In this document: positions 3,001 to 19,746 of the stretch, piece by piece
Numbering within the stretch: position 1 is the stretch's first letter
Layout: each line of letters starts with the position of its first letter
DNA from: Candidatus Latescibacterota bacterium
Lineage (GTDB): Bacteria; Latescibacterota; UBA2968
Length of the DNA stretch: 64,000 nucleotides
Assembly (NCBI GenBank): GCA_965222605.1
Contig: OZ244960.1
Span: 3,456,001-3,520,000 of the forward strand
Direction: 5' to 3'
The notes under the pieces: generated by a model
Database searches by the model: none
What the model was told of the DNA's origin: nothing
Seen by the model: the letters and a program-made list of their open reading frames with translations, nothing else
Translations under genes and position numbers: made by a program

Positions 3001-5846
3001 CGTATAAAACTGTCGAACAGGGCAAACTAATTACCCCGATTCATTTATCAGCATCCGGAGGTTGGGAACCCTATACGTATTCCATATCTGGCGCACCAAC
3101 GGGTATCTCTTTATCAAGTGGTAATCGCATCACAGGCAGGCCCTCACAGAGTGGAACTTTCACAATTACTGTAACCGTGACCGATGTGCGTGGTAGTACT
3201 GGAGAGCATAGTTTCAGGATGAGTGTTTATTCGAAAGAGCTTACTAAAAAATTTTCTCCAATTTTGATTTTGACAGAACATCCAAGTAGAGAGGACCGCA
3301 AAGTGATCTTTCCCGAACCCGTGGAAATCATGGGTGCAGAATCTGTTTCTAATCTTAAGTTTCGTATTAACAACGTCCTGGGACAAGAATTATCTGATAG
3401 TTTTTATTCCGCCTTAACTTCATCTTGGCGTGATTATTTTAATAGTATTTACCAGAATACCATTAATAATTCTATTAATCTTTCAGAGAATAAATTTGCC
3501 TTCTTACCTGCGGCGTTAAGATATCAGGGAAGGCCACCGGGACTTGCAGATGGTATCTATTTTGTGCTTGCATATTTTGACTATCCTGGCGAACTGGAAA
3601 CAGGTGAAAATAGCTGGTATGATTATTATACTGGTACTACTGATCCTCCTCACCCTCAAGCCGGAGCTAATTTTGGCAACACAGCATACGTGCATATTTT
3701 TGATAAAGGTGATGGTAATGTCGTCATACAGTATTATTACTTTTATCCCTTTAATGATTTTCAAAATAACCACGAAGGGGATTGGCCACGCATTAATGTT
3801 ATTGTGGACTCCTTTGATCCAGATGACGCAGAACTCGTTGGAATTGACTACACATTTCATGGCAAGGGTCTAACCTATACCAGTACTGACGATAGGATTT
3901 TCAACCCTCAGACACGTTTTGTTGCACCAGCTGAAGGCGGAACGCATCCAGTTGTATATGTTGGAGCAGGTTCCCACGGTGGTTATCCTACCGGAGGTAA
4001 TTATCCGGATCCCGGTGGTGAAATAGCAGGGATAGGTTATGATGAAGATATGACAACGGATGGGCTTGTTCTGAATACTCAGGTCGAGGACACGCGGCGT
4101 GATGTTGCACAATCTTATGATTTAATATTTCTGCCCAATCCCGATCCAAATCAACCCAATATGGGTTTGTCACCAGAAATGAGTTGGTTGGGTACTACAG
4201 CACTATGGGGAACACCACGCGTTGATTCACCCGGTGATGGGCCATACGCCCAGTTTATAAGGGAAATACTAGATTTGATCCCGGGCACCTTATTTGACTT
4301 ACCCCGCGACTTAAATAAAGCAGCTCTAGGACCGGTTTATAGTGGCTGGAACACATCGGGAGCGAGTGGTTACGATAAGGTTAATGTACCTTATACCGAG
4401 TTTCAACAATTTCCAATCGTACAAAACGTTACATGGAGTGGCACAATAAAGCTGATTGGTGATATTGTTGTCTATCCCGGCGCAACTCTGACAATTGACG
4501 CTGGCACGACGATCAGAGCCGCTCCCAATCGAGATATTCACGGCATTATAGATGCAAATCACGTCGATATTATCAACTATGGAAAGATACGCGCCAATGG
4601 GACAAGCTTGCAACCCATTGTATTTCGTTCCGACACTTTGATTGCCTCGGCAGGAGACTGGTATGGCATCAGGAATCACGGCGATTTGACTATGAGCCAT
4701 TGCACGATTCAACATGCAGTGGTTGGTCTGGATTTGCAAGGGACGCAGACCTTGACGGATATGACATTGAATACCAATACCTATAACACCCCTCTAACAA
4801 TCACAGCAATAGAGGATGTTACAGCGACTCAAAATGGGGCGATTACAGATATACCGGTGAGTGCATCAGGAGGGTGGGAACCCTATACGTATTCCACATC
4901 TGAATTACCTTCAGGTATCGTTCTTGATCAAAATCAAAACAGGGTTTTCATCACTGGCACACCAACAGCGACTGCCTACTCTGACATTACAGTGACCGTG
5001 CGAGATGCTGTAAATGACGAGGCATCGACATCGTTTAACCTGTTTGTTTCTGCGGTTACTCAGCCCTTGAGTATCGAGTCAATAGCGGATGTGATAGCCA
5101 CTCAGGATGTCGCAATTACCCCCATACAGGTAGTAGCGTCAGGCGGTAGCGGGGCATATACGTATTCGATAGAGAGCAACCCTGAAGGTTTAATAGCGAG
5201 CGATCCTGACGAAGATCCTGGTCTTTCTATCGATTCGAATGGCCGCATCACAGGCGCACCCCCAGTGAGTGGGGATTTCAGGATCACGGTGACCGTGGAA
5301 GATGCCCCTCTTGGCCGTGCTCCCCCCACACAGGAAAGTCACTATTTCTCCATGACGGTCAATGCACCCACACACGTTACGCCGCCGCTGACAATCGTAG
5401 AGATAGATGATATAGCGATCAAGATCAGTGGTGTACAGACGAACAGCCCGATTACGCCTATTCAGGTCTCAGCATCAGGCGGACAAACGCCTTATACTTA
5501 TTCCATGTCCAGCAACCCTGCCACTGGTTCTGGTCTGTCCATCAATGCGAGCAACGGACAGATCACAGGCACGCCAACACAGAGAGGCACTTTCACACTG
5601 ACCGTGACTGTAACGGATAATGCAAGTACGACTGCAACTGAAAGTTTCTCAATGGCTGTCCGTCTGATAGGTGACTTTAATGGTGATGGTGTGGTCAATT
5701 TATCAGATCATTTACTTTTTTTAGAAGTGTTTGGTCTAACCGAAGATGACGATGGTTTTAATGCAGAGATGGATTTGAATGGCGATGGAACCATTGGTAT
5801 TCCCGATTTTCTGATCTTTGTAGATAACTTTGGCTCTTCTGCATAG
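36..5846 (+). CDS. Giant secreted surface protein or adhesin: signal peptide, SwmB-like domain, 8 fibronectin type III repeats, putative Ig (He_PIG-like) repeats, central Vps62/NPP1-like domain, short beta-helix, C-terminal dockerin-like EF-hand pair
   Basis: 1936-aa ORF. Hydrophobic leader LAVLAALSILPAAAQ (true start may be ATG 135). Eight PTNLTAQAG...LTWTTPGNGGS...YTFEVRAVNAQG units. SASGG-x-PYTYS...GQITGTPT Ig repeats. YYYFYPFNDFQNNHEGDW and HPVVYVGAGSHG motifs. C-terminus GDFNGDGVVNLSD...DLNGDGTIGIPDF. Confidence 0.9.
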   Translation: MSTDRCLNTSRRTDPSPATDQGRHWLPGRLACYMLAVLAALSILPAAAQDQDTTAPELRSVSINRILLRLTYDEELDDDSEPDISAFTVTVNGASREVRTVVVIRTFVLVFLYSPVQAGETVTVSYTVPATNPVQDLSGNRAAAITNLPVSNNTPATAPPAPTNLTAQAGDRSVALTWTTPGNGGSAITRHQYREKVESGAFGNWMNISNSAEGQANANSYTVSDLTNGITYTFEVRAVNAQGESAESNEDSARPAATVTSTIPPAPTNLTAQAGDAQVTLTWTTPGNGGSTITRHQYREKVGTSLFGNWMNISNSAEGQANANSYTVSDLTNGITYTFEVRAANAQGASTESNEDSARPATVPDAPTNLTAQAGDAQVTLTWTTPGNGGSTITKHQYREKIESGEFGNWMNIPNSAEGQANANSYTVPNRTNGITYTYQVRAVNAQGESTESNEDSARPTATVTSTAPPAPTNLTAQAGDRSVTLTWTTPGNGGSSITKHQYREKVGTGEFGNWTNIPNSTEGQTNANSYTVPNRTNGTTYTYKVRAANAQGASTESNEDSARPATVPDAPTNLTAQAGDAQVTLTWTTPGNGGSTITKHQYREKIESGEFGNWMNIPNSAEGQANANSYTVPNRTNGITYTYQVRAVNAQGESTESNEDSARPTATVTSTAPPAPTNLTAQAGDRSVTLTWTTPGNGGSSITKHQYREKVGTGEFGNWTNIPNSTEGQTNANSYTVPNRTNGTTYTYKVRAANAQGESTESNEDSARPTATVTSTVPPAPTNLTAQAGDRSVTLTWTTPGNGGSSITRHQYREKIESGEFGNWMNIPNSAEGQANANSYTVPNRTNGITYTFEVRAVNAQGESTESNEDSARPATVPDAPTNLTAQAGNAQVTLTWTTPGNGGSSITRHQYREKIESGEFGNWMNIPNSAEGQANANSYTVPNRTNGITYTYKVRAVNAQGQSTESNQASARPILSSYPPLSVSPIAYKTVEQGKLITPIHLSASGGWEPYTYSISGAPTGISLSSGNRITGRPSQSGTFTITVTVTDVRGSTGEHSFRMSVYSKELTKKFSPILILTEHPSREDRKVIFPEPVEIMGAESVSNLKFRINNVLGQELSDSFYSALTSSWRDYFNSIYQNTINNSINLSENKFAFLPAALRYQGRPPGLADGIYFVLAYFDYPGELETGENSWYDYYTGTTDPPHPQAGANFGNTAYVHIFDKGDGNVVIQYYYFYPFNDFQNNHEGDWPRINVIVDSFDPDDAELVGIDYTFHGKGLTYTSTDDRIFNPQTRFVAPAEGGTHPVVYVGAGSHGGYPTGGNYPDPGGEIAGIGYDEDMTTDGLVLNTQVEDTRRDVAQSYDLIFLPNPDPNQPNMGLSPEMSWLGTTALWGTPRVDSPGDGPYAQFIREILDLIPGTLFDLPRDLNKAALGPVYSGWNTSGASGYDKVNVPYTEFQQFPIVQNVTWSGTIKLIGDIVVYPGATLTIDAGTTIRAAPNRDIHGIIDANHVDIINYGKIRANGTSLQPIVFRSDTLIASAGDWYGIRNHGDLTMSHCTIQHAVVGLDLQGTQTLTDMTLNTNTYNTPLTITAIEDVTATQNGAITDIPVSASGGWEPYTYSTSELPSGIVLDQNQNRVFITGTPTATAYSDITVTVRDAVNDEASTSFNLFVSAVTQPLSIESIADVIATQDVAITPIQVVASGGSGAYTYSIESNPEGLIASDPDEDPGLSIDSNGRITGAPPVSGDFRITVTVEDAPLGRAPPTQESHYFSMTVNAPTHVTPPLTIVEIDDIAIKISGVQTNSPITPIQVSASGGQTPYTYSMSSNPATGSGLSINASNGQITGTPTQRGTFTLTVTVTDNASTTATESFSMAVRLIGDFNGDGVVNLSDHLLFLEVFGLTEDDDGFNAEMDLNGDGTIGIPDFLIFVDNFGSSA
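511..2960 (+). repeat. Intragenic tandem array of 8 FN3-coding repeats (300/315 bp units), including an apparently identical 615-bp duplication (~1054-1695 = ~1669-2310)
   Basis: Direct DNA repeats are visible. Shadow ORFs 1349..1600 and 1964..2215 translate identically at an offset of 615 bp. Confidence 0.9.
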
Positions 5847-5889
5847 TTTTTTAGTGCAAGAGACCTCTCTTTGTCAGGAGGAATACATC

Positions 5890-6687
5890 ATGACACATAT
5901 AGCAGCAATCATTCTGATTTTAGGTCTCTGTCTGCCCCAGGCTCTGATGGCAGGGGAGGTCCTTGAAGCCGGTGAGATTGACAGCAGCAAGGTAAAAGTC
6001 GGTGCCTATGCCGAGATCATCTATGGGACGGGTGAGCGGGATCAAGTCTCAGGGAAGTGGGAGAAACTAGATACCGCACAAGGATATATTAAAGCCGTTG
6101 ATGCAGAGAGTTTGACTATTGGACGCGGTCTTTGGAAGGAGCAAATAGCTTTTGAGCGCATACAAAAGCTGATCCTTGCAGAGTCTGGTCGTGAAATAGA
6201 CAGGCTTAAAAAGACAACTGATTCGCTTTCTGTGAGAAAAGAGAATGGGAACTCGCGAATGATCAAAAAGTTGGGCTGCGGTGCTCTTGCTGGGTTCTTA
6301 TCCGGCATTGTGGGGACCGCAATCGTTACAGCGATAGGTGACTGCCGATCTGAAAATCTAGGATGTTTTGTTGCACCAATTGCAATCGGTGGAGGGATTG
6401 GCTGGGTAGTCGGTGTGCCCGTCGGCGTGAGCTTATGTGATCCACATGATCGATTTACCTATTCATTGGCAGGCAGCCTGATAGGAAGTACAGTAAGTCT
6501 TGCGGTGCTCAAGATAGACGAAAAGACCGCACAAAACCTCTGGCAAGCCCTTGTTATCAGTCCCCTTATTGGCGCGGTGATCATGTCCGAGTTGTTCCGA
6601 AAACCGTTAGAGAACCGTCGTGTCTCTATCGGTCTGCTACCCGGTCCCAAAGGACGAGTATCCGCTGTTGCCACACTTCGATTTTGA
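5890..6687 (+). CDS. Array family A protein 1: signal peptide, small beta-rich domain, variable Gly-rich hydrophobic segment with Cys pair, C-terminal beta-hairpin ending in Phe
   Basis: GGAGG RBS then ATG 5890 (MTHIAAIILILGLCLPQALMA). DCRSENLGC. Ends RVSIGLLPGPKGRVSAVATLRF. Confidence 0.85.
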   Translation: MTHIAAIILILGLCLPQALMAGEVLEAGEIDSSKVKVGAYAEIIYGTGERDQVSGKWEKLDTAQGYIKAVDAESLTIGRGLWKEQIAFERIQKLILAESGREIDRLKKTTDSLSVRKENGNSRMIKKLGCGALAGFLSGIVGTAIVTAIGDCRSENLGCFVAPIAIGGGIGWVVGVPVGVSLCDPHDRFTYSLAGSLIGSTVSLAVLKIDEKTAQNLWQALVISPLIGAVIMSELFRKPLENRRVSIGLLPGPKGRVSAVATLRF

Positions 6688-6729
6688 GGAAGCTACCAAT
6701 ACCTGTCTGTTTCTGCGGCTGCTCGGCCC

Positions 6730-7497
6730 TTGAGTATCGAGTCAATAGCGGATATTATAGCCACTCAGGATGTGGCAATTACCCCCATACAGGTAAAAGC
6801 GTCAGGCGGTAGCGGGGCATATACGTATTCGATAGAGAGCGACCCAACCGAAGGTTCTGGTCTTTCTATCGATTCGAATGGCCGCATCACAGGCGCACCC
6901 ACAGCGAGTGGAAATTTCAGGATCACAGTGACCGTGGAAGATGCCCCTCCAGGCCGTGCTCCCCCCACACAGGTCAGTCGCTATTTCTCCATGACGGTAA
7001 ATGCACCCACACACGTTACGCCGCCGCTGACAATCGCAGAGATAAATGATATAACAGTCAAAATAAGTGGCGTGCAGACGAACAGCCCCATTACCCCTAT
7101 TCAGGTCTCAGCATCAGGAGGACAAACGCCATACTCCTATTCCCTGTCCAGCAACCCTGCCACAGGTGCTGGGCTGTCCATCAATGAGAACAGTGGACAA
7201 ATCACAGGCACACCCACACAGGCAGGCTCTTTCACACTAACCGTGAGTGTAACGGATAATGCAAGTACGACTGCAACTGAAAGGTTCTCAATGGCTGTCC
7301 GTCTGATAGGTGACTTTAATGGTGATGGTGTGGTCAATTTATCAGATCATTCACTTTTTGTGGCAGCGTTTGGCCTATCCGAAGATGACGATGGTTTTAA
7401 TGCTGAGATGGATTTGAATGGCGATGGAACCATTGGTATTCCCGATTTTCTGATCTTTGTAAGTCACTACCCTGGCACCGCTGCCCGGTTTTTTTAG
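6730..7497 (+). pseudogene. Start-less copy 1 of the giant gene 3' end (2 Ig + dockerin), alternative tail VSHYPGTAARFF
   Basis: DNA homology to ~5038-5830 begins at ~6701, upstream of the TTG. No RBS or signal peptide; frame open. Confidence 0.75.
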
Positions 7498-7565
7498 TAC
7501 ATAGGGCAACTCAAATGGTGCTCAGGTTCAGGGTTCACTCTCCATCTTTGTCAGGAGGAATTATC

Positions 7566-8378
7566 ATGACACATATAGCAGCAATCATTCTGATTTTGGG
7601 TCTATGTCTGCCACAGGCTCTGTTGGCAGGGGAGGTCTTTCAAGCCGGTGAGATTGACAGCAGCAAGGTTGAAGTCGGTGCCTATGCCGAAGTTATCTAT
7701 GGGACGGGAGAGCGGGATCAAGTCTCAGGGGAGTGGAAGAAACAGGAGGAGGCACAAGAATATATTAAAGCTGTTGATCAAGGAAGTTTGACCATTAGCC
7801 AGGGTTTGGGGAAGCGGATAGCCTTTGAGCGCATACAACAACTGATCCTTGCAGAATCATCTTTCGCAATGGACAGACTAAAAAAGACAATAGATACGCT
7901 TTTTGTGATAGAGACGACAGAGACGCCTTCTATGAGAATGGAGTACATGCCTGGGCGAATTGTTAGCAAGTTGGTCGGTGGCGTTCTTTGCGGAGGCCTT
8001 TTCGGATTTGTGGGGGGCCTGGTCACCGGGAAGGTGTCTTGCAAAAAATCCGACTCTGGAGAGATATGCGGCCTCCTAGCTTTCGTGGTTGGTGGGACAA
8101 TTGGCTATACAGTCGGCGTGCCCTTCGGCGTAAGCGTGCTTGATCCGCATGATCAATTCATGTATTCATTTGCAGGTAGCCTGATAGGAGGCGCAGCAGG
8201 CATTGCACTGACCCGCGCCGAAGAAGAGCTCTGGCCCTCCCTTCTTATCTGCCCACTTGTCGGAGCTACCATTCTGTCTGAGCTTACACGCAAACCGCCA
8301 GAGGCTCGTCGTGTCTCCATCGGTCTGCTACCCGGTCCCAAAGGCAGAGTATCCGCTGTTGCCACGCTTCGATTTTAA
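7566..8378 (+). CDS. Array family A protein 2
   Basis: GGAGG RBS, ATG 7566. Same N- and C-termini as A1 with a divergent middle (SCKKSDSGEICG). Confidence 0.85.
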   Translation: MTHIAAIILILGLCLPQALLAGEVFQAGEIDSSKVEVGAYAEVIYGTGERDQVSGEWKKQEEAQEYIKAVDQGSLTISQGLGKRIAFERIQQLILAESSFAMDRLKKTIDTLFVIETTETPSMRMEYMPGRIVSKLVGGVLCGGLFGFVGGLVTGKVSCKKSDSGEICGLLAFVVGGTIGYTVGVPFGVSVLDPHDQFMYSFAGSLIGGAAGIALTRAEEELWPSLLICPLVGATILSELTRKPPEARRVSIGLLPGPKGRVSAVATLRF

Positions 8379-8416
8379 GTAGCTACCAATACCTGTTTTC
8401 TGCTGCTACTCGGCCC

Positions 8417-9454
8417 TTGAGTATCGCAACAAAAGAGGGTGTGATAGCCACTCAGAATGTGGCAATTACCCCCATAAAGGTAAAAGCTTCAGGTGGTGAC
8501 GGAGCCTATACATATTCGATAGCAAGCGACCCTACCGGTTTAATAGCGACCGATCCTTCCACAGGTTCTGGTCTTTCTATCGATTCGAATGGCCGCATTA
8601 CTGGCACACCCACAGTGAGTGACGATTTCACGATCACAGTGACCGTGGAAGATGCCCTTGGCCGCGATTTACCCACACAGGTAAGTCGTTCTTTCACCAT
8701 GCGCGTTAAACCGCGCGTGACAGTCTCAGCAATAGGCAGTATCACCGTCACGCAGAACACCTCTATTACCCCTATTCAGGTCTCAGCATCAGGGGGACAA
8801 ACGCCATACTCCTATTCCCTGTCCAGCAACCCTGCCACGGGTTCTAATCTTTCTATCAATGCGACCAGTGGACAAATCACAGGCACACCCACACAGACAG
8901 GCACTTTCATACTTACTGTGACCGATGATCACGGCAGGACAGGAACACGCAGTTTCTCCATGACGGTAAATGCACCCACACACGTTACGCCGCCGCTGAC
9001 AATCGCAGAGATAAATGATATAACCGTCAAGATAAGTGGTGTGCAGACAAATAGCCCCATTACCCCTATTCAGGTCTCAGCATCAGGAGGACAGACGCCT
9101 TATGCCTATTCTCTGTCCAGCAATCCAGCCACAGGTTCTGGTCTGTCCATCAATGCAACCAATGGTCAAATCACTGGCACACCCACACAGGCAGGCTCTT
9201 TTACACTAACCGTGAGTGTAACGGATAATGCAAGTACGACTGCAACTGAAAGTTTCTCAATGGCTGTCCGTCTGATAGGTGACTTTAATGGTGATGGTGT
9301 GGTCAATATATCAGATCATTTACTTTTTTTAGAAGTGTTTGGTCTAACCGAAGATGACGATGGTTTTAATGCTGAGATGGATCTGGATGGCGATGGAACC
9401 ATTGGTATTCCCGATTTTCTGATCTTTGTAGATAACTTTGGCTCTTCTGCATAG
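8417..9454 (+). pseudogene. Start-less copy 2 of the giant gene 3' end (3 Ig + dockerin)
   Basis: Homologous to ~5060-5846 plus an extra Ig repeat (PRVTVSAIGSITVTQNTS). No RBS or signal peptide. Confidence 0.75.
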
Positions 9455-9496
9455 TTTTTTAGTGCAAGAGACCTCTCTTTGTCAGGAGGAATCATC

Positions 9497-10078
9497 ATGA
9501 GACATATAGCAGCAATCGTACTGATTTTGGGATTCTGTCTGCCCCAGGCTCTGTTGGCAGGGGAGGTCCTTCAAGTCGGTGAGATTGACAGGCTTAAAGA
9601 GACAACTGATACGCTTTCTGTAAAAAAAGAGAACAAATCCAGACGGATTGTTGGCAAGTTGGCAGGTGGTGTCCTGGGGGGAACACTTTTCGCCCTTGCG
9701 GGGGGCGCAGCCAGTGCAGCGATCAGTGACTGTACAGAGGACGAGACATTTTGTAAATTAGGAGATAGTTTAATTGGTGGATGGGTTGGCTATCTCGTCG
9801 GCGTACCCATAGGCATTAACCGAATGGATCCATACGATCAATTTAAGTATTCATTGGCAGGTAGCCTGATGGGAGGTGCTGCAAGTCTTGCGGTGTTCAC
9901 GATGGTGGAAGACGAGACAGCGGAAAACCTCTGGCCAGCCCTTGTTATCTGCCCTCTTGTTGGCGCGGCGATCATGTCCGAGTTTTTTCGAAAACCGTTA
10001 GAGAATCGTCGTGTCTCTATCGGTCTGCTACCCGGTCCCAAAGGAAGAATATCCGCTGTTGCCACGCTTCGATTTTAA
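9497..10078 (+). CDS. Array family A protein 3 with in-frame internal deletion of the N-terminal domain
   Basis: ATG 9497. GEID is joined directly to RLKETTD. Conserved ...ATLRF end. Confidence 0.8.
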   Translation: MRHIAAIVLILGFCLPQALLAGEVLQVGEIDRLKETTDTLSVKKENKSRRIVGKLAGGVLGGTLFALAGGAASAAISDCTEDETFCKLGDSLIGGWVGYLVGVPIGINRMDPYDQFKYSLAGSLMGGAASLAVFTMVEDETAENLWPALVICPLVGAAIMSEFFRKPLENRRVSIGLLPGPKGRISAVATLRF

Positions 10079-10147
10079 GTAGCTGCCAGTGCCTTTGTCT
10101 CAAGGGAAATGAGCCAGTAACCCCGTAACCTGAACCATGTTTGAACT

Positions 10148-10942
10148 GCTGGCGCACCTTCAGCGAGTGGAAATTTCACGATCACAGTGACCGTGGAAGA
10201 TGCCCCTGGCCGTGATTTACCCACACAGGTAAGTCGCTCTTTCTCCATGACGGTCAATGCACCCACACACGTTACGCCGCCGCTGACAATCGCAGAGATA
10301 GATGATATAGCGATCAAGATCAGTGGTGTACAGACGAACAGCCCGATTACGCCTATTCAGGTCTCAGCATCAGGCGGACAAACGCCTTATACTTATTCCA
10401 TGTCCAGCAACCCTGCCACTGGTTCTGGTCTGTCCATCAATGCGAGCAACGGACAGATCACAGGCACGCCAACACAAAGAGGCACTTTCACACTGACTGT
10501 GACTGTAACGGATAATGCAAGTACGACTGCAACTGAAAGTTTCTCAATGGCTGTCCGTCTGATAGGTGACTTTAATGGTGATGGTGTGGTCAATATATCA
10601 GATCATTTACTTTTTTTAGAAGTGTTTGGTCTAACAACACTTCGGACAGTTTTTAGGTGTAGAGGTTCTTTGAAATCAACAGGTTAGATGAGGCCCCATG
10701 TTTTATTTGCAACTTAGACCTATACCTTGAGTTTAATAAAAAAACAGATAATTCTGTAACCTTTTGTATTATAGAGACTTAGGATTTTTTGAATAATTGA
10801 AGACCGATCAAAAAGTGTCCGAACCATTGGTCTAACCGAAGATGACGATGGTTTTAATGCTGAGATGGATTTGAATGGCGATGGAACCATTGGTATTCCC
10901 GATTTTCTGATCTTTGTAAGTCACTTTGGCTCCTCTGCATAG
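10148..10942 (+). pseudogene. Start-less copy 3 of the giant gene 3' end, interrupted by a MITE in the dockerin
   Basis: Homology runs to ...GGTCTAA at 10634, resumes at 10830 and ends at TAG 10942. Confidence 0.85.
10635..10829. mobile_element. MITE (non-autonomous IS derivative, 195 bp)
   Basis: Terminal inverted repeats CAACACTTCGGACAGTTTTT and reverse-complement CAATGGTTCGGACACTTTTT (16/20). Target duplication GTCTAA (apparent direct repeat up to 10 bp, TTGGTCTAAC). AT-rich, no ORF. Other array units show the empty site. Confidence 0.9.
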
Positions 10943-10985
10943 TTTTTTTAGTGCAGGAGACAGATCTTTACCAGGAGGAATCATC

Positions 10986-11807
10986 ATGACACATCTAACT
11001 ACAATCGTTCTGCTTTTGGGTCTCTGTCTGCCCCAGGCTCTGATAGCAGGGGAGATCCTTGAAGCCGGTGAGATTGACAGCAGCAAGGTAAAAGTCGGTG
11101 CCTATGCCGAGATCATCTATGGGACGGGTGAGCGGGATCAAGTCTCAAGGGAGTGGAAGAAACTGGACACGGCACAAGGATATATTAAAGCTGTTGATCA
11201 AGAGAGTTTGACGATTGGACGCGGTCTTTGGAAAGAGCAGATCGCTTTCGAGCGTATTCAAAAGCTGATCCTTGCAAGGTCTGACCGCGAAATAGACAGG
11301 CTTAAAAAGATGACGGATACGCTTTCTGTAATAGATAACAGACGACAAGGACAAAATAGTACAGGCGGAGGACGGATTACCAAAAAGTTGGCGGGCGGCG
11401 TTCTTGCAGGATTTCTATTCGGCATGGCGGGAGGCACAGCAGCAGCAGCGATCACTGACTGCAAAAAGGACGAGACATTCTGTGAATTAGGAAATTTTGT
11501 AACTGGTGGGTGGTATGGCTATGTCGTCGGCGTACCCATAGGCATGAACCGAATGGATCCATACGATCAATTTAAGTTTTCATTGGCAGGCAGCCTGATT
11601 GGAGGTGCTGCAAGTCTTGTGGTGTTCAAGATAGTGGAAAATGAAACAGCAGAAGAACTCTGGCCAGTCCTTTTTATCAGTCCCCTTGTCGGAGCTACAA
11701 TTATGTCCGAGTTGTTTCGAAAACCGTTAGAGAACCGTCGTGTCTCTATCGGTCTGCTACCCGGTCCCAAAGGAAGAGTATCCGCTGTTGCCACACTTCG
11801 ATTTTGA
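10986..11807 (+). CDS. Array family A protein 4
   Basis: GGAGG RBS, ATG 10986. DCKKDETFC. ...ATLRF end. Confidence 0.85.
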   Translation: MTHLTTIVLLLGLCLPQALIAGEILEAGEIDSSKVKVGAYAEIIYGTGERDQVSREWKKLDTAQGYIKAVDQESLTIGRGLWKEQIAFERIQKLILARSDREIDRLKKMTDTLSVIDNRRQGQNSTGGGRITKKLAGGVLAGFLFGMAGGTAAAAITDCKKDETFCELGNFVTGGWYGYVVGVPIGMNRMDPYDQFKFSLAGSLIGGAASLVVFKIVENETAEELWPVLFISPLVGATIMSELFRKPLENRRVSIGLLPGPKGRVSAVATLRF

Positions 11808-11849
11808 AGAAGCTACTAATACCTGTCTGTTTCTGCGGCTACCCAGCCC

Positions 11850-12602
11850 TTGAGTATCGCGACAATAGCGGATGTGATAGCCACTCAGGATGTGGCAATT
11901 ACCCCCATACAGGTAGTGGCTTCAGGTGGTGGCGGGTCCTATACGTATTCGATAGCGAGCGACCCTTCCACAGGCTCTGGCCTTTCTATCGATTCGAATG
12001 GTCGCATCACGGGCAGACCCACAGCGAGTGGAAATTTCACGATCACAGTGACCGTGGAAGATGCCCCTGGCCGTGATTTACCCACACAGGTAAGTCGCTC
12101 TTTCTCCATGACGGTCAATGCACCCACACACGTTACGCCGCCGCTGACAATCGCAGAGATAAATGATATAACAGTCAAGATAAGTGGCGTGCAGACAAAT
12201 AGCCCCATTACTCCTATTCAGGTCTCAGCATCAGGAGGACAAACACCTTATGCCTATTCCATATCCAGCAATCCAGCCACAGGTTCTGGTCTGTCCATCA
12301 ATGCGAGCAACGGACAGATCACAGGCACGCCAACACAAAGAGGCACTTTCACACTTACTGTGACTGTAACGGATAATGCAAGTACGACGGCAACTGAAAG
12401 GTTCTCCATGGCTGTCAGTCTGATAGGTGACTTTAATGGTGATGGTGTGGTCAATATATCAGATCATTTACTTTTTTTAGAAGTGTTTGGTCTAACCGAA
12501 GATGACGATGGTTTTAATGCTGAGATGGATTTGAATGGCGATGGAACCATTGGTATTCCCGATTTTCTGATCTTTGTAAGTCACTTTGGCTCCTCTGCAT
12601 AG
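11850..12602 (+). pseudogene. Start-less copy 4 of the giant gene 3' end (2 Ig + dockerin)
   Basis: Homology starts ~11821. No RBS or signal peptide; frame open. Confidence 0.75.
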
Positions 12603-12645
12603 TTTTTTTAGTGCAGGAGACAGATCTTTACCAGGAGGAATCATC

Positions 12646-13437
12646 ATGACACATCTAACTACAATCGTTCTGATCTTGGGTCTCTGTCTGCCACAGGCTC
12701 TGTTGGCAGGGGAGGTCCTTCAAGCCGGTGAGATTGACAGCAGCAAGGTTGAAGTCGGTGCCTATGCCGAGGTCATCTATGGGACGGGTGAGCGGGATCA
12801 AGTCTCAGGGAAGTGGGAGAAACTGGATACCGCACAAGGATATGTTAAAGCTGTTGATGCAGAGAGTCTGACCATTAGCCAGGGTTTGGGGAAGCGGATA
12901 GCCTTTGAGCGCATACAACAACTGATCCTTACAGAATCATCTTTCCAAATGGACAGGCTTAAAAAGACAACTGATACGCTTTCTGAAAAAAAAGAGAACA
13001 AACCCAATAGAATTGTCGGCAAGTTGGCAAGTGGTGTCCTGGGGGGGACACTTTCCGGCCTTGCGGGGGGCTTAGTCGGAATAAATGTCGGTGACTGCTC
13101 AGAGAAAGAAAGATTTTGTGAAGAAGAACATTTTGTAATTGGTGGATGGATTGGCTATCTCGTCGGCGTGCCCGCTGGCATGAGCGCATTTGATTCATGC
13201 GATCAATTTAAGTATTCATTGGCAGGTAGCCTGATCGGAGGTGCTGCAAGTCTTGTGATATTCACAGATGAAGAGACCCTGGAAGACTTATGGCCAGCCC
13301 TTTTTATTTCTCCCTTTGTCGGCGCAGCGATCATGTCCGAGTTTTCCCGAAAATTGCCAGAGGGTCGTCGTGTCTCCATCGGCCTGCTACCCGGTCCCAA
13401 AGGCAGAGTATCCGCTATTGCCACGCTTCGATTTTGA
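12646..13437 (+). CDS. Array family A protein 5
   Basis: GGAGG RBS, ATG 12646. DCSEKERFC. ...ATLRF end. Confidence 0.85.
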   Translation: MTHLTTIVLILGLCLPQALLAGEVLQAGEIDSSKVEVGAYAEVIYGTGERDQVSGKWEKLDTAQGYVKAVDAESLTISQGLGKRIAFERIQQLILTESSFQMDRLKKTTDTLSEKKENKPNRIVGKLASGVLGGTLSGLAGGLVGINVGDCSEKERFCEEEHFVIGGWIGYLVGVPAGMSAFDSCDQFKYSLAGSLIGGAASLVIFTDEETLEDLWPALFISPFVGAAIMSEFSRKLPEGRRVSIGLLPGPKGRVSAIATLRF

Positions 13438-13508
13438 GTTAGCTACCGGTGTATTTATCTCAAGGGGAACGAGCCTGTAACCCCGTAACCTGAACCATGT
13501 TTGAACTG

Positions 13509-14115
13509 CTGGCGCACACCTTCAGCGAGTGGAAATTTCACGATCACAGTGACCGTGGAAGATGCCCCTGGCCGTGATTTACCCACACAGGTAAGTCGCT
13601 CTTTCTCCATGACGGTCAATGCACCCACACACGTTACGCCGCCGCTGACAATCGCAGAGATAAATGATATAACAGTCAAGATAAGTGGCGTGCAGACGAA
13701 CAGCCCGATTACGCCTATTCAGGTCTCAGCATCAGGCGGACAAACACCTTATGCCTATTCCATATCCAGCAATCCAGCCACAGGTTCTGGTCTGTCCATC
13801 AATGCGAGCAACGGACAGATCACAGGCACGCCAACACAAAGAGGCACTTTCACACTAACTGTGACTGTAACGGATAATGCAAGTACGACTGCAACTGAAA
13901 GGTTCTCAATGGCTGTCAGTCTGATAGGTGACTTTAATGGTGATGGTGTGGTCAATTTATCAGATCATTTACTTTTTTTAGAAGTGTTTGGTCTAACCGA
14001 AGATGACGATGGTTTTAATGCCGAAATGGATCTGAATGACGATGGAACCATTGATGTTGCCGATTTTCTGATCTTTGTAAGTCACTACCCTGGCACCGCT
14101 ACTCGGTTTTTTTAG
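13509..14115 (+). pseudogene. Start-less copy 5 of the giant gene 3' end, tail VSHYPGTATRFF
   Basis: Begins mid-Ig repeat after the same ~70-bp spacer as copy 3. Confidence 0.8.
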
Positions 14116-14183
14116 TGCAGGAGACAGCTTTTTGACTTTTGAGCGGAATCAATGAGATACATTTGTTTCAAAAGGAGAAACAC

Positions 14184-15278
14184 ATGAAAAAATTAGCTGC
14201 TGTCTTTGTAACCGCGACCCTCTTCCTCAACGCGATGGCTCCTACACTCGCGTATGCAGCCACATACCTGCGAGGCAAAGAGGTCAATGCCAACACGCTC
14301 ATTCAAGATGCTTATGTTGCTGTCACCTATTTCGACAGCAAAAATAAACGGATATTAGACAAGGGCTGGATTGATGCGATTGGCGAGACCACATTTCGGA
14401 TTCGATTCAGAGCACTTTTTGGCAAGAAGACGATTGCTTACGACAAAGTGCTGTCAGTGATCATGAGCGAAGAAGCAACCACACGAGGCAAGCAAATCAA
14501 TGAGGTGGATCGGTTTATTCGAGACATGAAAAAACAAGAGGCAAAAGCATTAGAGACAGAGCAAGCTGCTATCCAACGGCTCAATCAAAAGACCGTCACA
14601 ATCATGCCACGCGGACAGGTTGACCCGTCAGAGATCACAAAGGGATGGTATGCCCATATCGTCTATACATCTCAGGGGGCCACAGGAAAAGCTACCAGCC
14701 AAATTGCGGACAAGGACTCAAGCCGTATTGCCCTCAAACATGGGTTTGATACCCAGAACATAGTTTATGATCATATTGATACCCTCATTGTCGCCAAACA
14801 CCTGCGAGAGATTGAGCAATATCGAGAAACCGGTGCGAAATACAATGCCCGGGTGCGTGTATATGCCCCGTCCATTCAGAAAGGACAGATGGTTGGCAAG
14901 CTCATTAAAATGCTGCAAGACACACTCATTATCCAGAAAGGGCGTAGCTTTTATCAGGTGCCTGTTTCATCAATCTCTAAATTCGACGTCAGTATCAAAC
15001 AATATAGAAATACAAGCAAAGGATTGAAAATCGGTCTTGCTGCTGGGGCTGGTGTAGCTATCCTGATAAATATTCCCGATTCGAGTGGCGATTTGCAAGG
15101 ATTGGCTGAATTATTAGCCACTGTGATAATCGTACCACCAATTGTAGTTATCTCCACTCTGATTGGTGCAATAACAAAATCAGACAAATGGGTCGAAGTG
15201 TCTCCCCAACGCCTCAACTTGAGCCTTGCACCCACATCCAGCAAAGGGCTTCACGCTGCACTCACCTTCAACTTTTAG
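14184..15278 (+). CDS. Array family C protein 1: signal peptide, three small beta-rich repeats, two hydrophobic helices, C-terminal beta-hairpin ending in Phe
   Basis: AAGGAG RBS, ATG 14184 (MKKLAAVFVTATLFLNAMAPTLAYA). Ends RLNLSLAPTSSKGLHAALTFNF. Confidence 0.85.
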   Translation: MKKLAAVFVTATLFLNAMAPTLAYAATYLRGKEVNANTLIQDAYVAVTYFDSKNKRILDKGWIDAIGETTFRIRFRALFGKKTIAYDKVLSVIMSEEATTRGKQINEVDRFIRDMKKQEAKALETEQAAIQRLNQKTVTIMPRGQVDPSEITKGWYAHIVYTSQGATGKATSQIADKDSSRIALKHGFDTQNIVYDHIDTLIVAKHLREIEQYRETGAKYNARVRVYAPSIQKGQMVGKLIKMLQDTLIIQKGRSFYQVPVSSISKFDVSIKQYRNTSKGLKIGLAAGAGVAILINIPDSSGDLQGLAELLATVIIVPPIVVISTLIGAITKSDKWVEVSPQRLNLSLAPTSSKGLHAALTFNF

Positions 15279-15420
15279 GGATGTAAATGATTCAAATGTA
15301 GAGTCGAAGTGCGTCAAAACAACCCATACCTTTTCATCCTCTTCCTCAGAGCCATCCTCGAGATATCCAGAAACGTAGCCGCGTGGACCTGGTTCTCTCT
15401 GTTCGTCGCAATACCCTTTG

Positions 15421-15808
15421 TATTCAGGTCTCAGTATCAGGCGGACAAACGCCTTATGCGTATGCCCTATCCAGCAATCCCGCCACAGGTTCTGGTCTGT
15501 CCATCAATTCCAGCAGTGGGCAGATCACAGGCACACCCACGCAGAGAGACTCTTTTACACTGACCGTGACGGTAACCGATAATGCAAATACGACTGCAAC
15601 TGAAAGTTTTTCAATGGTTGTCAGTCTGATAGGCGACTTTAATGATGATGGTATGGTCGATGTAGCAGATCATTTACTTTTTGTAGCTGTGTTTGGTCTA
15701 TCCGAAGGTGATGATGGTTTTAATGCTGATATGGACCTAAATGGCGATGGAACCATTGGCACGCCTGATTTTCTAATCTTTGTCAGTCACTTTGGCTCCT
15801 CTGCATAG
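15421..15808 (+). pseudogene. Start-less copy 6 of the giant gene 3' end (partial Ig + dockerin, more diverged)
   Basis: Homology starts at TATTCAGGTCTCAG 15421, after ~140 bp of unrelated sequence. Confidence 0.8.
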
Positions 15809-15884
15809 TTTTTTAGTACAGGAGATAGCTCATTGACTTTTGAGCGGAATCAATGAGGTATATTTATCTCAAAAGGAGAACCGC

Positions 15885-16970
15885 ATGAAAAAATTAGCTG
15901 CTGTCTTTGTAACCGCGACCCTCTTCCTCAACGCGATGGCTCCTACACTCGCGTATGCAGCCACATACCTGCGAGGCAAAGAGGTCAATGCCAACACGCT
16001 CATTCAAGATGCTTATGTTGCTGTCACCTATTTCGACAGCAAAAATAAACGGATATTAGACAAGGGCTGGATTGATGCGATTGACGAGACTTCGTTTACC
16101 ATTCGGAATGGTCTGTGGGGGAAAAAGACGATTGCTTATACCAAAATCTTGTCACTGGTTATGAGCGAAGAAGCAACCACGTTAAGGCAAATGAATGAGG
16201 TAAATCGGTGGTTTAGTGGAAATATGGCAGAAAGAGGACCAGAGACAGAGCAAGCCGCTATCCAACGGCTCAATCAAAAGACCGTCACAATCAGGCCACG
16301 CGGACAGATTGAACCGGCAGAGATCACAAAGGGATGGTATGCTCACGTCGTCTATACATCTCAAAGAGCCACTGGAAAAGCCATTAGTCGAATTGCCGAT
16401 AAAGACACCAGCCACATCGCACTCAAATATGGGTTTGATACCCATAACATAGCTTATGCTGACATTGATACCCTCATTGTCGCCAAACACAGACGAGATA
16501 TCGAGAGATATCGAGAGACTGGAGCCAAATACAATGCCCGAGTGCGTGTGTATGCCCCGTCAATTCAGAAGGGACAAATGGTTGGCAATTTCGTTAACAT
16601 GATGCAAGACACGCTCGTTATTCAAAGAGGACGTAGCTTTTTTCAGGTGCCTGTTTCTTCAATCTCTACATTCGACATCAGCATCAAACAGTACAGAAAC
16701 ACAGGCAAAGGCTTGATAATTGGGCTTGCTGCCGGGGCTGGTATGGCTATCCTGATAAATTTTCCCACGGATGAGGTACCCGATTTGCAAGGATTAGTTC
16801 AAGTATACGCCACTATGATAATCGTACCCTCAATTGTAGTTATCTCCACTCTGATCGGTGCAATGAAGAAATCCGACAAATGGGTCGAAGTGTCTCCCCA
16901 ACGCCTCAACCTGAGCCTTGTACCCACATCCGGTAAAGGACTTCTCGCCGCGCTCACATTCAATTTCTAA
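15885..16970 (+). CDS. Array family C protein 2
   Basis: ATG 15885. First ~65 aa identical to C1, diverged afterwards. Ends ...AALTFNF. Confidence 0.85.
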   Translation: MKKLAAVFVTATLFLNAMAPTLAYAATYLRGKEVNANTLIQDAYVAVTYFDSKNKRILDKGWIDAIDETSFTIRNGLWGKKTIAYTKILSLVMSEEATTLRQMNEVNRWFSGNMAERGPETEQAAIQRLNQKTVTIRPRGQIEPAEITKGWYAHVVYTSQRATGKAISRIADKDTSHIALKYGFDTHNIAYADIDTLIVAKHRRDIERYRETGAKYNARVRVYAPSIQKGQMVGNFVNMMQDTLVIQRGRSFFQVPVSSISTFDISIKQYRNTGKGLIIGLAAGAGMAILINFPTDEVPDLQGLVQVYATMIIVPSIVVISTLIGAMKKSDKWVEVSPQRLNLSLVPTSGKGLLAALTFNF

Positions 16971-16981
16971 TCAATTTCTAA

Positions 16982-17596
16982 TCTATCGATTCGAATGGCC
17001 GCATCACTGGCGCACCCACACTGAGTGGAGATTTCACGATCAGAGTGACCGTGGAAGATGCCCCTCCTGTCCGTGCTCCCTCCACACAAGTAAGTCGCTC
17101 TTTCTTCATGACGGTCAATGCACCTACAACTCCGACACTGACAATCGCAGAGATAGATGATATAACCGTCAAAATCAGTGGTGTGCAGACGAACAGCCCC
17201 ATTACCCCTATTCAGGTCTCAGCATCAGGAGGACAAACGCCATACTCCTATTCCCTGTCCAGCAACCCTGCCACAGGTTCTGGTCTGTCCATCAATGCAA
17301 CCAATGGTCAAATCACTGGCACACCCACACAGGCAGGCTCTTTTACACTAACCGTGAGTGTAACGGATAATGCAAGTACGACTGCAACTGAAAGTTTCTC
17401 AATGGCTGTCAGTCTGATAGGTGACTTTAATGGTGATGGTGTGGTCAATATATCAGATCATTTACTTTTTTTAGAAGTGTTTGGTCTAACCGAAGATGAC
17501 GATGGTTTTAATGCTGAGATGGATTTGAATGGCGATGGAACCATTGGCACGCCCGATTTTCTGATCTTTGTAAGTCACTTTGGCTCCTCTGCATAG
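16982..17596 (+). pseudogene. Start-less copy 7 of the giant gene 3' end
   Basis: Homology starts at TCTATCGATTCGAATGG, right after an 11-bp duplication TCAATTTCTAA at the C2 stop. Confidence 0.8.
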
Positions 17597-17640
17597 CTTT
17601 TTTCGTGCAGGAGACCTCTCTTTGTCAAGAGGAATACATC

Positions 17641-18417
17641 ATGACACATATAGCAGCAATCATTCTAATTTTGGGTCTCTGTCTGCCCCAGGCTCTGATA
17701 GCAGAGGAGGTCCTTCAAGCCGGTGAGATTGACAACAGCAAGGTTGAAGTCGGTGCCTATGCCGAAGTCATCTATGGGACGGGTGAGAAACTATCTACGG
17801 CACGCGGCTACGTTCAGGCTGTTGATGCAGAGAGTTTGACCATTGGACGCGGTTTTTGGAAGGAGCAGATAGCTTTTGAGCGCATACAAAAGCTGATCCT
17901 TGCAGAGTCTGACCGCGAAATAGACAGGCTTCAAGAGGCGACCGATACCCTTTCTGTAATAGATAACAGACGACAAGGCCGAAATAGTACAGGCGGAAGA
18001 CGGATTGCCAAAAAATTGGCAGGCGGTGTTCTTGGAGGGATCCTGTTTGGTATGACAGTGGGCCTGACTGGTGCGGCGATCGTTGACTGCCCAGAGAACG
18101 TTTCATTCTGTGAAATAGAAAACTTTTTTAGTCTTGGATGGTATGGCTATGTCGTTGGCTTACCCGTTGGCATGAACCGAATGGATCCACACGACCGATT
18201 TATCTATTCATTGGCAGGTAGCCTGATCGGAGGTGCAGCAAGTCTTGCACTAACAGATTCCAAAGACGAGTTCTGGACTCTTATTATCTGCCCCCTCGTT
18301 GGCACTGCAATTATGTCCGAGTTTTTTCGAAAACCGCCAGAGAATCGTCGAGTCTCCATCGGTCTGCTACCCGGTCCCAAAGGCAGAGTATCCGCTGTTG
18401 CTACACTTCGATTTTGA
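17641..18417 (+). CDS. Array family A protein 6
   Basis: GAGG RBS, ATG 17641. DCPENVSFC. ...ATLRF end. Confidence 0.85.
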   Translation: MTHIAAIILILGLCLPQALIAEEVLQAGEIDNSKVEVGAYAEVIYGTGEKLSTARGYVQAVDAESLTIGRGFWKEQIAFERIQKLILAESDREIDRLQEATDTLSVIDNRRQGRNSTGGRRIAKKLAGGVLGGILFGMTVGLTGAAIVDCPENVSFCEIENFFSLGWYGYVVGLPVGMNRMDPHDRFIYSLAGSLIGGAASLALTDSKDEFWTLIICPLVGTAIMSEFFRKPPENRRVSIGLLPGPKGRVSAVATLRF

Positions 18418-18459
18418 AGAAGCTACTAATACCTGTCTGTTTCTGCGGTTACTCAGCTC

Positions 18460-18726
18460 TTGAGAATCGAGCCAATAGCAGATGTGATAGCCACTCAGGA
18501 TGTGGCAATTGAAAGTTTCTCAATGACTGTCCGTCTGATAGCCGATTTTAATGGTGATGGTGTGGTCAATTCGTCAGATTATGCACTTTTTTATGCCGTG
18601 TTTGGTCTATCGGAAGGTGATGATGGTTTTAATATCGATATGGATCTGAATGGCAATGGAACCATTGATACCCCCGATTATCTGATCTTTGTAAGTCACT
18701 TTGGCTCTGCTGCCCGGTTTTTTTAG
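18460..18726 (+). pseudogene. Start-less copy 8 of the giant gene 3' end with Ig repeats deleted (dockerin only)
   Basis: VIATQDVAI is fused in frame to ESFSMTVRLIADFNGDG. Confidence 0.8.
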
Positions 18727-18791
18727 TGCAGGAGACAACGCTTTATCAGGAGGAATCAATGAGGTACATTTCTTTCAAAAGGGAGAAACTC

Positions 18792-18911
18792 ATGAAAAAA
18801 TTAACCGTTACCTTTGTAACCGCGACTCTCCTGCTCAACGCGATGGCTCCCTCACTCGCACATGCAGCCACATACCTGCAAGGCGCACAGGTCAATTATT
18901 TTATTTTGTAG
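18792..18911 (+). pseudogene. Truncated family C gene (signal peptide plus ~10 aa)
   Basis: MKKLTVTFVTATLLLNAMAPSLAHAATYLQGAQVN matches C1/C2, then homology breaks and a stop follows. Confidence 0.8.
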
Positions 18912-19001: not shown

Positions 19002-19319
19002 ATGCAACCCGATGCGAATGTCATTGATCAACTCGTAGAGCGAATTGTCGAAGTTGTCAACCCGCTCAAAATTATCCTTTTTGGCTCGGCTGCGCGAGGC
19101 GAGATGGGACCGGACAGCGATGTGGATGTGCTCGTTGTCATGCCCAATGGTGTTCACAGGCGAAGAACAGCGCAGCATCTTCATATTGAAATGAGGGGCA
19201 TTCCTCTGCCCGTTGATATTCTGGTTGCAACACTTGGAGACCTCGAGAAACACAAAAATAATATTGGATTAATCTATTATCGCATCTTAGAAGAAGGGAA
19301 AGAAATTTATGCCGCCTGA
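19002..19319 (+). CDS. Minimal nucleotidyltransferase (MNT) antitoxin
   Basis: IILFGSAARGE-x-GPDSDVDVLVV (GS-x10-DxD) motif, 105 aa. Confidence 0.9.
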   Translation: MQPDANVIDQLVERIVEVVNPLKIILFGSAARGEMGPDSDVDVLVVMPNGVHRRRTAQHLHIEMRGIPLPVDILVATLGDLEKHKNNIGLIYYRILEEGKEIYAA

Positions 19320-19746
19320 TGTCTCAACATCTGGTTCACCGGCTGATTGGATTCGGTATGCCAGAGGAGACTTGGCACTGGCGCAAGTTTCCTTACCAGA
19401 AGATAGTTTTTACGAGCTGTTGTGTTTCCATGCCCAACGGGCAGCAGAAAAGAGCATCAAAGCTGTGCTTGTACACAGAGGGGTTGCTTTCCCCAAAACG
19501 CATATTATCGAGCGGTTGATTGATCTTCTTCCTGAAGATGTTTCCAAAATACCAGAACTTTCTCAATCTGCAAAGCTGTCCGTTTATGCGACTGTTTCAC
19601 GTTATCCCGGTGATGTATCAGAATCAGTTGATGAAGAAGAATATCAGGAAGCAGTGAGACTCGCCCAGGCTGTTGTCCAATGGGCAGAATCTATACTCCC
19701 TGCACCCGATACAGAATCTGAAGCCCCGGACTCAGAATCGCACTGA
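19309..19746 (+). CDS. HEPN domain protein (partner of MNT)
   Basis: CFHAQRAAEKSIKA, PKTH and RYP motifs. Overlaps the MNT stop. Confidence 0.9.
   Translation: MPPDVSTSGSPADWIRYARGDLALAQVSLPEDSFYELLCFHAQRAAEKSIKAVLVHRGVAFPKTHIIERLIDLLPEDVSKIPELSQSAKLSVYATVSRYPGDVSESVDEEEYQEAVRLAQAVVQWAESILPAPDTESEAPDSESH

Follow-up and report, generated by a model that had tools for sequence, protein, structure and literature searches.

Tandem array of silent adhesin-gene tails and partner genes in a Latescibacterota genome, consistent with segmental duplication under concerted evolution

In the genome of a Candidatus Latescibacterota bacterium (assembly GCA_965222605.1; a 6.34-Mb single contig, OZ244960.1), a large gene for a dockerin-ended protein, hereafter the head gene, is followed by eight further copies of its own 3' end, each of which precedes a gene of one of two other families, called A and C. 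The locus lies in a stretch of 64,000 nucleotides (positions 3,456,001 to 3,520,000 of the contig), hereafter the window, to which coordinates refer unless stated otherwise. The explanation that we favour, with a probability of about 0.6, is that of a tandem segmental-duplication array under concerted evolution, in which the silent tails would be earlier or alternative head-gene ends. This explanation builds on the anatomy of the array, on the recombination signal found in the tails, on their concerted evolution, on a swap of the head-gene end between species, and on differences in copy number between species.

The array is composed of nine tandem units, each made of an adhesin tail and a partner gene (Table 1). 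Unit 1 extends from about 5038 to 6687, its left edge being a He_PIG domain boundary inside the head gene and its right edge falling just past the stop codon of the partner. Two repeat families are found, one of 300 nt in eight copies with 87-96% identity (5459-5758 and seven more), the other of 255 nt in nine copies and covering the dockerin end and the intergenic spacer. The array is fully assigned, with 142 nt as the biggest unassigned spacer. The nine tails are followed by six A genes, two C genes and one C gene cut after 39 codons, exactly as counted in a preliminary description of this DNA made from the letters alone. The junction between an A gene and the following tail is identical behind A1, A2, A4 and A6 and recurs in a second array of the same genome (locus 2) as well as in the related genome G014, a 65-nt filler is common to the A3 and A5 junctions, and the two junctions between a C gene and a tail recur in locus 2, G014 and G017. 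These shared junctions indicate that the units spread by copying.

The eight silent tails (F1 to F8), already recognized in the preliminary description as repeats of the end of the head gene lacking a ribosome-binding site and a signal peptide, are 0.29-1.06 kb long and, when the best blastn match of each to the head-gene end is considered, 84.7-95.7% identical to it. No Shine-Dalgarno-like sequence is present ahead of candidate starts in any of the eight fragments, each frame opens only just past the stop codon of the preceding gene, and inspection of the eight translations by eye revealed no signal-peptide-like hydrophobic start. The frames are open over 98-390 codons, and the dockerin profile PF00404 (cut-off 22.9 bits) scores 22.6-31.2 bits in seven of the eight fragments, the value for the head gene being 28.4 bits, and finds no match in F3, which is broken by an insert. 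Furthermore, F3, F5, F6 and F7 have lost their 5' portions, each to a different point and in some cases to the middle of a domain, and the unaligned left end of F6 looks out of frame. It is likely that the fragments are not translated. Stop-codon read-through from an A gene into the next fragment was also considered and rejected, given that the two are in frame at five of the six A junctions but that four of these five contain a second stop in between. As for the partner genes, whose own ribosome-binding sites had been noted before, all of them have AGGAGG or AAGGAG 6-8 nt ahead of their ATG, and no terminator-like site was found after any of them. There is accordingly no evidence that the place behind the giant gene decides which partner is expressed, and all the A and C genes can probably be expressed at once.

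Recombination within the repeated block, which serves as a homology handle, is demonstrated by comparison of the tail sequences, in which exchange is seen on an evolutionary time scale only. Among the six full tail copies, 598 of the 1225 informative site pairs are incompatible in the four-gamete test, corresponding to a minimum number of recombination events (Rmin) of 15 within about 600 nt. The pairwise homoplasy index (PHI) of 0.364, to be compared with a permuted mean of 0.447 (standard deviation 0.014), was reached in none of 2000 permutations. Identical tracts longer than expected (p <= 0.01) were detected in 13 of 28 tail pairs, and two of them involve the expressed tail, namely between G0, as this first copy is called, and F2 (5782-5845) and between G0 and F3 (5406-5579), with conversion that may have run either way. 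Besides, a comparison over 357 nt of 14 copies, drawn from four genomes, revealed no private change in five of the seven copies of the window, one in F5 and six in F6. In the DNA tree, a clade with support 92/93 unites six of seven window tails and another (86/89) unites three of the locus-2 fragments, four of which were included; the neighbouring A genes fall in deep clades common to other species and to locus 2. As far as these trees go, the handle evolves in concert and the cargo descends independently.

The same picture emerges along the unit. Mean pairwise identity amounts to 0.94-0.98 in the dockerin, 0.85-0.94 in the spacer and the 5' part of A, 0.55-0.64 in the core of A (6242-6420) and 0.88 at its 3' end. 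At the protein level, the A copies of the window are 71-91% identical in their N-terminal domain, 36-68% in the core (64 residues, 119-182) and 83-100% at the C-terminal end. The partner genes had been termed hypervariable; this qualification does not hold, because the cores of A1, A4 and A6 recur in proteins of other species at 81-90% identity, and on these comparisons the A partners are stable, diverged paralogue types placed between two homology handles. When A1 is compared with its orthologues in two species, synonymous divergence (dS) amounts to 0.48-1.2 for the 5' part, to 0.36 for the 3' end and to just 0.04-0.14 for the core and the following helices; the ratios of nonsynonymous to synonymous divergence (dN/dS) are 0.34-2.8 in core and helices, where changes are few, versus 0.10-0.41 in the flanks. 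With dS high in the flanks and low in the core, the flanks have been replaced by sequence from local paralogues, and the core moves as an intact block. A short form of A, in which the signal peptide is joined to residue about 102 (the A3 type), is also present in G003, G011, G014 and G015; its recurrence in several genomes suggests a stable variant rather than a local deletion.

Searching the genome for other dockerin-ended genes followed by A or C genes, as the preliminary description had proposed, brought to light the second array and a third related cluster. Locus 2 (778-793 kb of the genome) consists of a head gene of 1187 codons followed by five tails with A and C genes. The unit formed by F6 and C2 is 89.8% identical to a locus-2 unit over 1550 nt, and A2 is sister to a locus-2 A gene. 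The third locus (genome positions 4582001-4612000) encodes dockerin-ended WD40 proteins of 701, 1614 and 1016 codons and contains one dockerin-ended fragment of 169 codons amid A/C-like genes with two SH3-like domains. Three proteins of 303-338 codons that end in Phe and have no Pfam match are also encoded there. Unit number and order, whose comparison had likewise been suggested, differ between species: there is one unit in G007 (head gene, A, broken C), about two in G017 (head gene, A, C and part of a tail, with the same right flank as here), and about eight in G014, where the order differs. Short dockerin-ended frames also lie beside A genes in G001, G002, G003, G015 and G019, and G026 has A/C arrays devoid of fragments. 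The head-gene orthologue of G017 (L021) reads as two overlapping open frames of 1159 and 354 codons and is therefore probably frameshifted.

As judged from phylogeny and alignment, the end of the head gene itself has been exchanged between species. The last 105 nt of the silent tail F1 and the 48 nt downstream are sister to the head-gene end of G014 (support 100/100), and this G014 end aligns with F1 through the stop codon and the spacer, its alignment with G0 stopping short of the end. Conversely, G014 holds two silent tails with the ending used here (...VDNFGSSA), and the head gene of G017 ends in the ...FF type. The simplest reading of these sequences is that, in this lineage, the head gene acquired by recombination a unit made of the present G0 end and A1, its former end becoming F1. 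The idea of the preliminary description that the repeated block is a homology handle shuffling partner genes is thus supported in part, by the recombining tails and their concerted evolution, by the units shared between loci, by the differences in unit number and order between species and by the exchanged head end, but its extension to a programmed or frequent switching found no support. Deletion or duplication variants were sought in the public sequencing runs X1, X3, X5 and X10, all available as short contigs. The four in-array joints examined, out of a longer list (13275>11647, 9701>13130, 16107>14408 and 14628>16318), all trace to locus 2, where both sides of each joint are adjacent, and they were rejected as variants of the array.

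Concerning the partner proteins, A and C are predicted, from their sequences and models, to be exported proteins with a signal peptide, 0-3 SH3-like barrels, glycine-rich membrane helices and a C-terminal strand pair of outer-membrane type, and their role is possibly envelope anchoring. In A as in C, the C terminus consists of two strands in which hydrophobic residues alternate, closed by a Phe, a pattern that we take to be outer-membrane-like. Neither has a Pfam or NCBIfam match (NCBIfam being tried on A1 and C1), no cohesin (PF00963) was detected in A or C, and Pfam and NCBIfam revealed no toxin or immunity family in the tail block or the partners. In the model of C1, with a predicted local distance difference test (pLDDT) score of 63.8, a long helix and two hydrophobic helices accompany three small beta-barrels, of which two reach pLDDT 82-91, and Foldseek relates the model to tandem Tudor/KOW-like barrels at an E value of about 1e-3. 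The RimP C-terminal SH3 profile PF17384 matches neither C1 nor A1, and gives 26.6-30.1 bits (cut-off 26.3) for the three homologues tested, out of three. The AlphaFold model of A1 has a mean pLDDT of 50.7, only four helices at residues 120-235 reaching 60-83, and leaves the N-terminal domain unresolved; in the protein atlas, A1 retrieves only unnamed clusters at 0.87, with a weak lead to glycine-zipper proteins. Two near-identical proteins, P0001 and P0121, show 98% identity to A1 and C1. The A family, represented by 566 clusters at E <= 0.001, was found in 22 of the 41 genomes searched, this one included, with 16 of 20 in the genus and five of 16 in the sister family. All 37 loci found in species representatives are Latescibacterota, from records titled Candidatus Latescibacterota metagenome-assembled genomes. 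Upstream of these loci, 30 have no dockerin end, four a long dockerin-ended gene and three a short frame, as counted with a dockerin-end pattern that may have missed some, for example in G001. Finally, the genome contains 80 dockerin matches, 61 of them above the cut-off; with only 15 lying within the three array loci and the cohesin matches sitting elsewhere in the genome, A and C do not appear to be general dockerin partners.

According to the favoured explanation, the duplicated unit would start in the head gene, at the last He_PIG and the dockerin, and would end behind the next gene, A or C, in such a way that every added unit would bring along a headless, untranslated tail copy. Unequal and ectopic homologous recombination would add, remove and reorder units and would move them among the three genome loci, acting through the conserved sequence of the tail and spacer, of the 5' region of A, and of its 3' end together with the junction. 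Short-tract gene conversion, including that of the expressed tail, would keep the tails alike and in frame, and the divergent A core would be a cargo flanked by two homology handles. The exchange is probably occasional RecA-type recombination with no dedicated machine. In agreement with the preliminary description, no integrase or recombinase gene was found in the array or in the 6 kb upstream; no G-quadruplex (G4) motif was found in window 1-21000, other recombination-promoting elements lying outside the search, and an Rfam scan of window 1-24000 gave no match. That fragments can break is visible from the insert in F3 and from the stops in fragments of relatives (two places in G014, and in G017 and G019). 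Some observations nevertheless weigh against this explanation. The dN/dS ratio among tails is 0.12-0.51 in all 21 pairs, those between two fragments included, and the head-aligned parts of the fragments contain no stop or frameshift, the insert in F3 excepted, so that the tails are more orderly than simple relics would be. In our view the low ratios result from conversion and from a recent derivation of the tails from expressed ends. The pattern would look no different, however, if the cassettes themselves were under selection, and the conservation of junctions across species could mean that the arrangement itself is selected.

Such selection is central to a rival explanation, which we regard as unlikely, according to which the array is a dedicated variation system whose in-frame tails are selected donor cassettes, often converted or deleted into the expression site, thereby changing the dockerin contacts and the partner. 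Such a system would be comparable to pilE/pilS or vlhA, the partner gene being an additional cargo. It would account for the presence of one expression site and eight start-less copies, for the low dN/dS even between silent copies, for the conversion tracts that take in the expressed copy and for the swap of the expressed end between species. The dockerin copies also differ in the residue pair before the conserved Asp (LS, IS, VA or SS in repeat 1; IP, VA or TP in repeat 2), positions which we take to be those of cohesin contact. However, tail variation is small (2-6% in the dockerin), the dockerin type shows no clear co-variation with the partner family, one cassette is broken by an insert and the four fragment matches in relatives mentioned above carry stops. 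Intact and independently translatable genes stand between the cassettes, none of the joints examined stands up as a variant, and neither the G4 motif nor the recombinase looked for, within the scope given above, was detected. A cassette system of reversed polarity, in which in-frame dockerin tails tied to different envelope-protein genes would be swapped into the single expression site, seems doubtful; if true, the cell could change its adhesin docking module together with a co-made membrane protein, a kind of surface variation not described before, and this in uncultured Latescibacterota.

Alternatively, the fragments could be kept for cis-acting signals, a promoter or a messenger RNA leader within the dockerin and He_PIG coding sequence, that drive the downstream A or C gene, in which case a duplicate would give an expressed partner only when it brings the tail along. 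Fragments of every length keep the part adjacent to the partner, identity is highest over the 250 nt that precede the spacer (0.94-0.98), a TTCACA-18-GATAAT match stands at the same place in eight of the nine copies, and the partner genes are not followed by terminator-like sites. Yet the two hexamers are Phe-Thr and Asp-Asn codons between which synonymous positions vary, and the second is absent from the G017 head gene; an internal promoter was accordingly rejected, the consensus match being explained by codons. Since, moreover, 30 of the 37 A-family loci of other Latescibacterota have no upstream dockerin end, the A/C arrays of G026 have no fragments, and the low dN/dS would be left unexplained, this possibility appears improbable. 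Translation of the fragments as separate small proteins from non-canonical starts would fit with the frames open over 98-390 codons and with dN/dS below 1, but it is very hard to reconcile with candidate starts devoid of a ribosome site, with the absence of a signal peptide on domains that act outside the cell, with 5' truncation points that vary and fall in some cases within a domain, and with the interruption of F3. Lastly, although repeats of 1.3-2 kb can mislead assemblers, an artefact by collapse or expansion of repeats can be practically dismissed: differences between units range over 4-45% along their length, and their junctions are distinct; public contigs of run X1, which may be the source sample, contain without change the right edge, the C1-F6 junction and stretches specific to single units; three C1/F6 stretches are nearly unchanged (0-2 differences) in run X5 from another study; and the same architecture is present in locus 2 and in the independent genomes G014, G017 and G019.

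Table 1. Features of the head gene and the array in the window. The match column gives the best blastn matches of each silent tail to the head-gene end.
Feature	Start	End	Strand	Match to head-gene end	Remarks
Head gene	36	5846	+		1936 codons; only tail copy joined to a complete gene
G0, expressed tail	5038	5846	+		first copy of the repeated block; two He_PIG and dockerin
A1	5890	6687	+		265 aa; AGGAGG ribosome site
F1, silent tail	6688	7497	+	88.7% over 785 nt	homology from 6701; ends ...YPGTAARFF; sister to G014 head-gene end
A2	7566	8378	+		270 aa; nearest relative is a locus-2 A gene of the same genome
F2, silent tail	8391	9454	+	92.2% over 502 nt; upstream extra segment 76.2% over 571 nt	three He_PIG domains; end type identical to G0
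A3	9497	10078	+		193 aa; short form without the N-terminal, SH3-like domain
F3, silent tail, left part	10151	10635	+	F3: 95.7% over 488 nt and 95.7% over 116 nt	blastn homology to head-gene end
Insert splitting F3	10636	10826			191 nt; like a miniature inverted-repeat transposable element (MITE); 10-nt target duplication TTGGTCTAAC on flanks
F3, right part	10827	10942	+		remainder of dockerin
A4	10986	11807	+		273 aa
F4, silent tail	11820	12602	+	88.3% over 809 nt	full length
A5	12646	13437	+		263 aa
F5, silent tail	13511	14115	+	92.1% over 572 nt	left junction filler common to F3
C1	14184	15278	+		364 aa
F6, silent tail	15421	15808	+	86.3% over 388 nt	unit with C2 shared with locus 2 (89.8% identical)
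C2	15885	16970	+		361 aa
F7, silent tail	16982	17596	+	89.7% over 621 nt	homology to head-gene end
A6	17641	18417	+		258 aa; orthologous to the only A gene that follows the head gene in G017, G007 and G014
F8, silent tail	18430	18726	+	84.7% over 209 nt and 92.5% over 80 nt	internal deletion; head piece and dockerin left, He_PIG part lost
Truncated C gene	18792	18911	+		39 codons; right edge of the array

The head protein comprises, in this order, a signal peptide, an SWM repeat, eight FN3 stretches, He_PIG, a central region, He_PIG and the C-terminal dockerin, with four He_PIG stretches in total. Its FN3 region (498-2975) is made of eight tandem repeats of 300 or 315 nt each, two of which (1131-1430 and 1746-2045) are 100% identical, which points to a very recent duplication of a 615-nt double unit. 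The central part (window about 3036-5037, residues about 1000-1667) has a YYYFYPFND...HEGDW motif and a beta-helix-like stretch, does not match any Pfam family, and is 67-69% identical in G014, G017 and G007. The insert in F3 is AT-rich with short imperfect inverted ends and has three other copies in the genome at 83-91% identity, one of which (genome 4598120-4598322) immediately follows an A-like gene in the third locus. At the right edge, the array is abutted by a nucleotidyltransferase (MNT) and HEPN gene pair (19002-19746), which is kept beside the orthologous locus in G017, and further on by two paralogous genes for DUF6785/DUF6784 membrane proteins (19861-21672 and 23703-25682, minus strand) and a gene for an IS66-family transposase (25774-27243, minus strand). 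Immediately ahead of locus 2, a gene of 650 codons (genome 772164-774116) is possibly another of the DUF6785/DUF6784 kind.

In the orphan cassette arrays located behind cdiA, rhs and mafB, the C-terminal domain is a variable toxin and the small gene its immunity partner. The present array resembles them in that a full gene is followed by start-less 3' fragments in the same orientation, with an intact small gene behind each, and in that recombination into the full gene can proceed through a stretch held in common; it differs from them by the absence of any detected toxin or immunity family and by a C-terminal block (He_PIG and dockerin) that is here the most conserved element, the variable part lying inside the downstream gene. 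Silent cassettes generate surface variation at pilE/pilS in Neisseria and at vlsE in Borrelia. A report on vlhA in Mycoplasma synoviae describes the same principle (PMC2825196). Like these systems, the array has a single expressed gene and start-less partial copies that are mosaic through segmental gene conversion, but unlike them it has intact genes interleaved, a low cassette diversity, some broken cassettes and no evidence of high frequency. Closer to the favoured explanation are arrays of tandem paralogues that evolve in concert and by birth and death and that have gene fragments at the edges of duplications; the present array has in common with them shared junctions, changes in copy number, converted ends and divergent middles. 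It departs from the usual ones in that in-frame tails of one gene alternate regularly with intact genes of another family, that the pattern occurs in three loci and several species, and that the expressed end takes part. Finally, in the Clostridium thermocellum cluster cipA-olpB-orf2p-olpA, a dockerin-ended scaffoldin gene is followed by genes for anchoring proteins. A large secreted dockerin-ended protein followed by genes for predicted envelope-attached proteins is found here too, although A and C have no cohesin and their models consist of SH3-like barrels and membrane helices. The array thus fits a known kind, that of tandem paralogue arrays with gene conversion and displaced gene ends, in an arrangement that appears new; literature searches retrieved no description of such arrays. 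Some relatives among the Latescibacterota are sponge-associated, and a study of these lists FN3, WD40 and LRR proteins and makes no mention of 'dockerin' or 'tandem' (PMC12993501).

In terms of biology, the locus would be a case in which ordinary homologous recombination gives a large surface-protein gene other final domains and another neighbour. Silent gene tails would arise as displaced former ends that gene conversion keeps readable, with a polarity reversed relative to that of orphan toxin cassettes. The comparison also defines an uncharacterised family of the Latescibacterota with a conserved-variable-conserved layout. If the exchange were frequent, it would provide uncultured bacteria with a new way of varying their surface.

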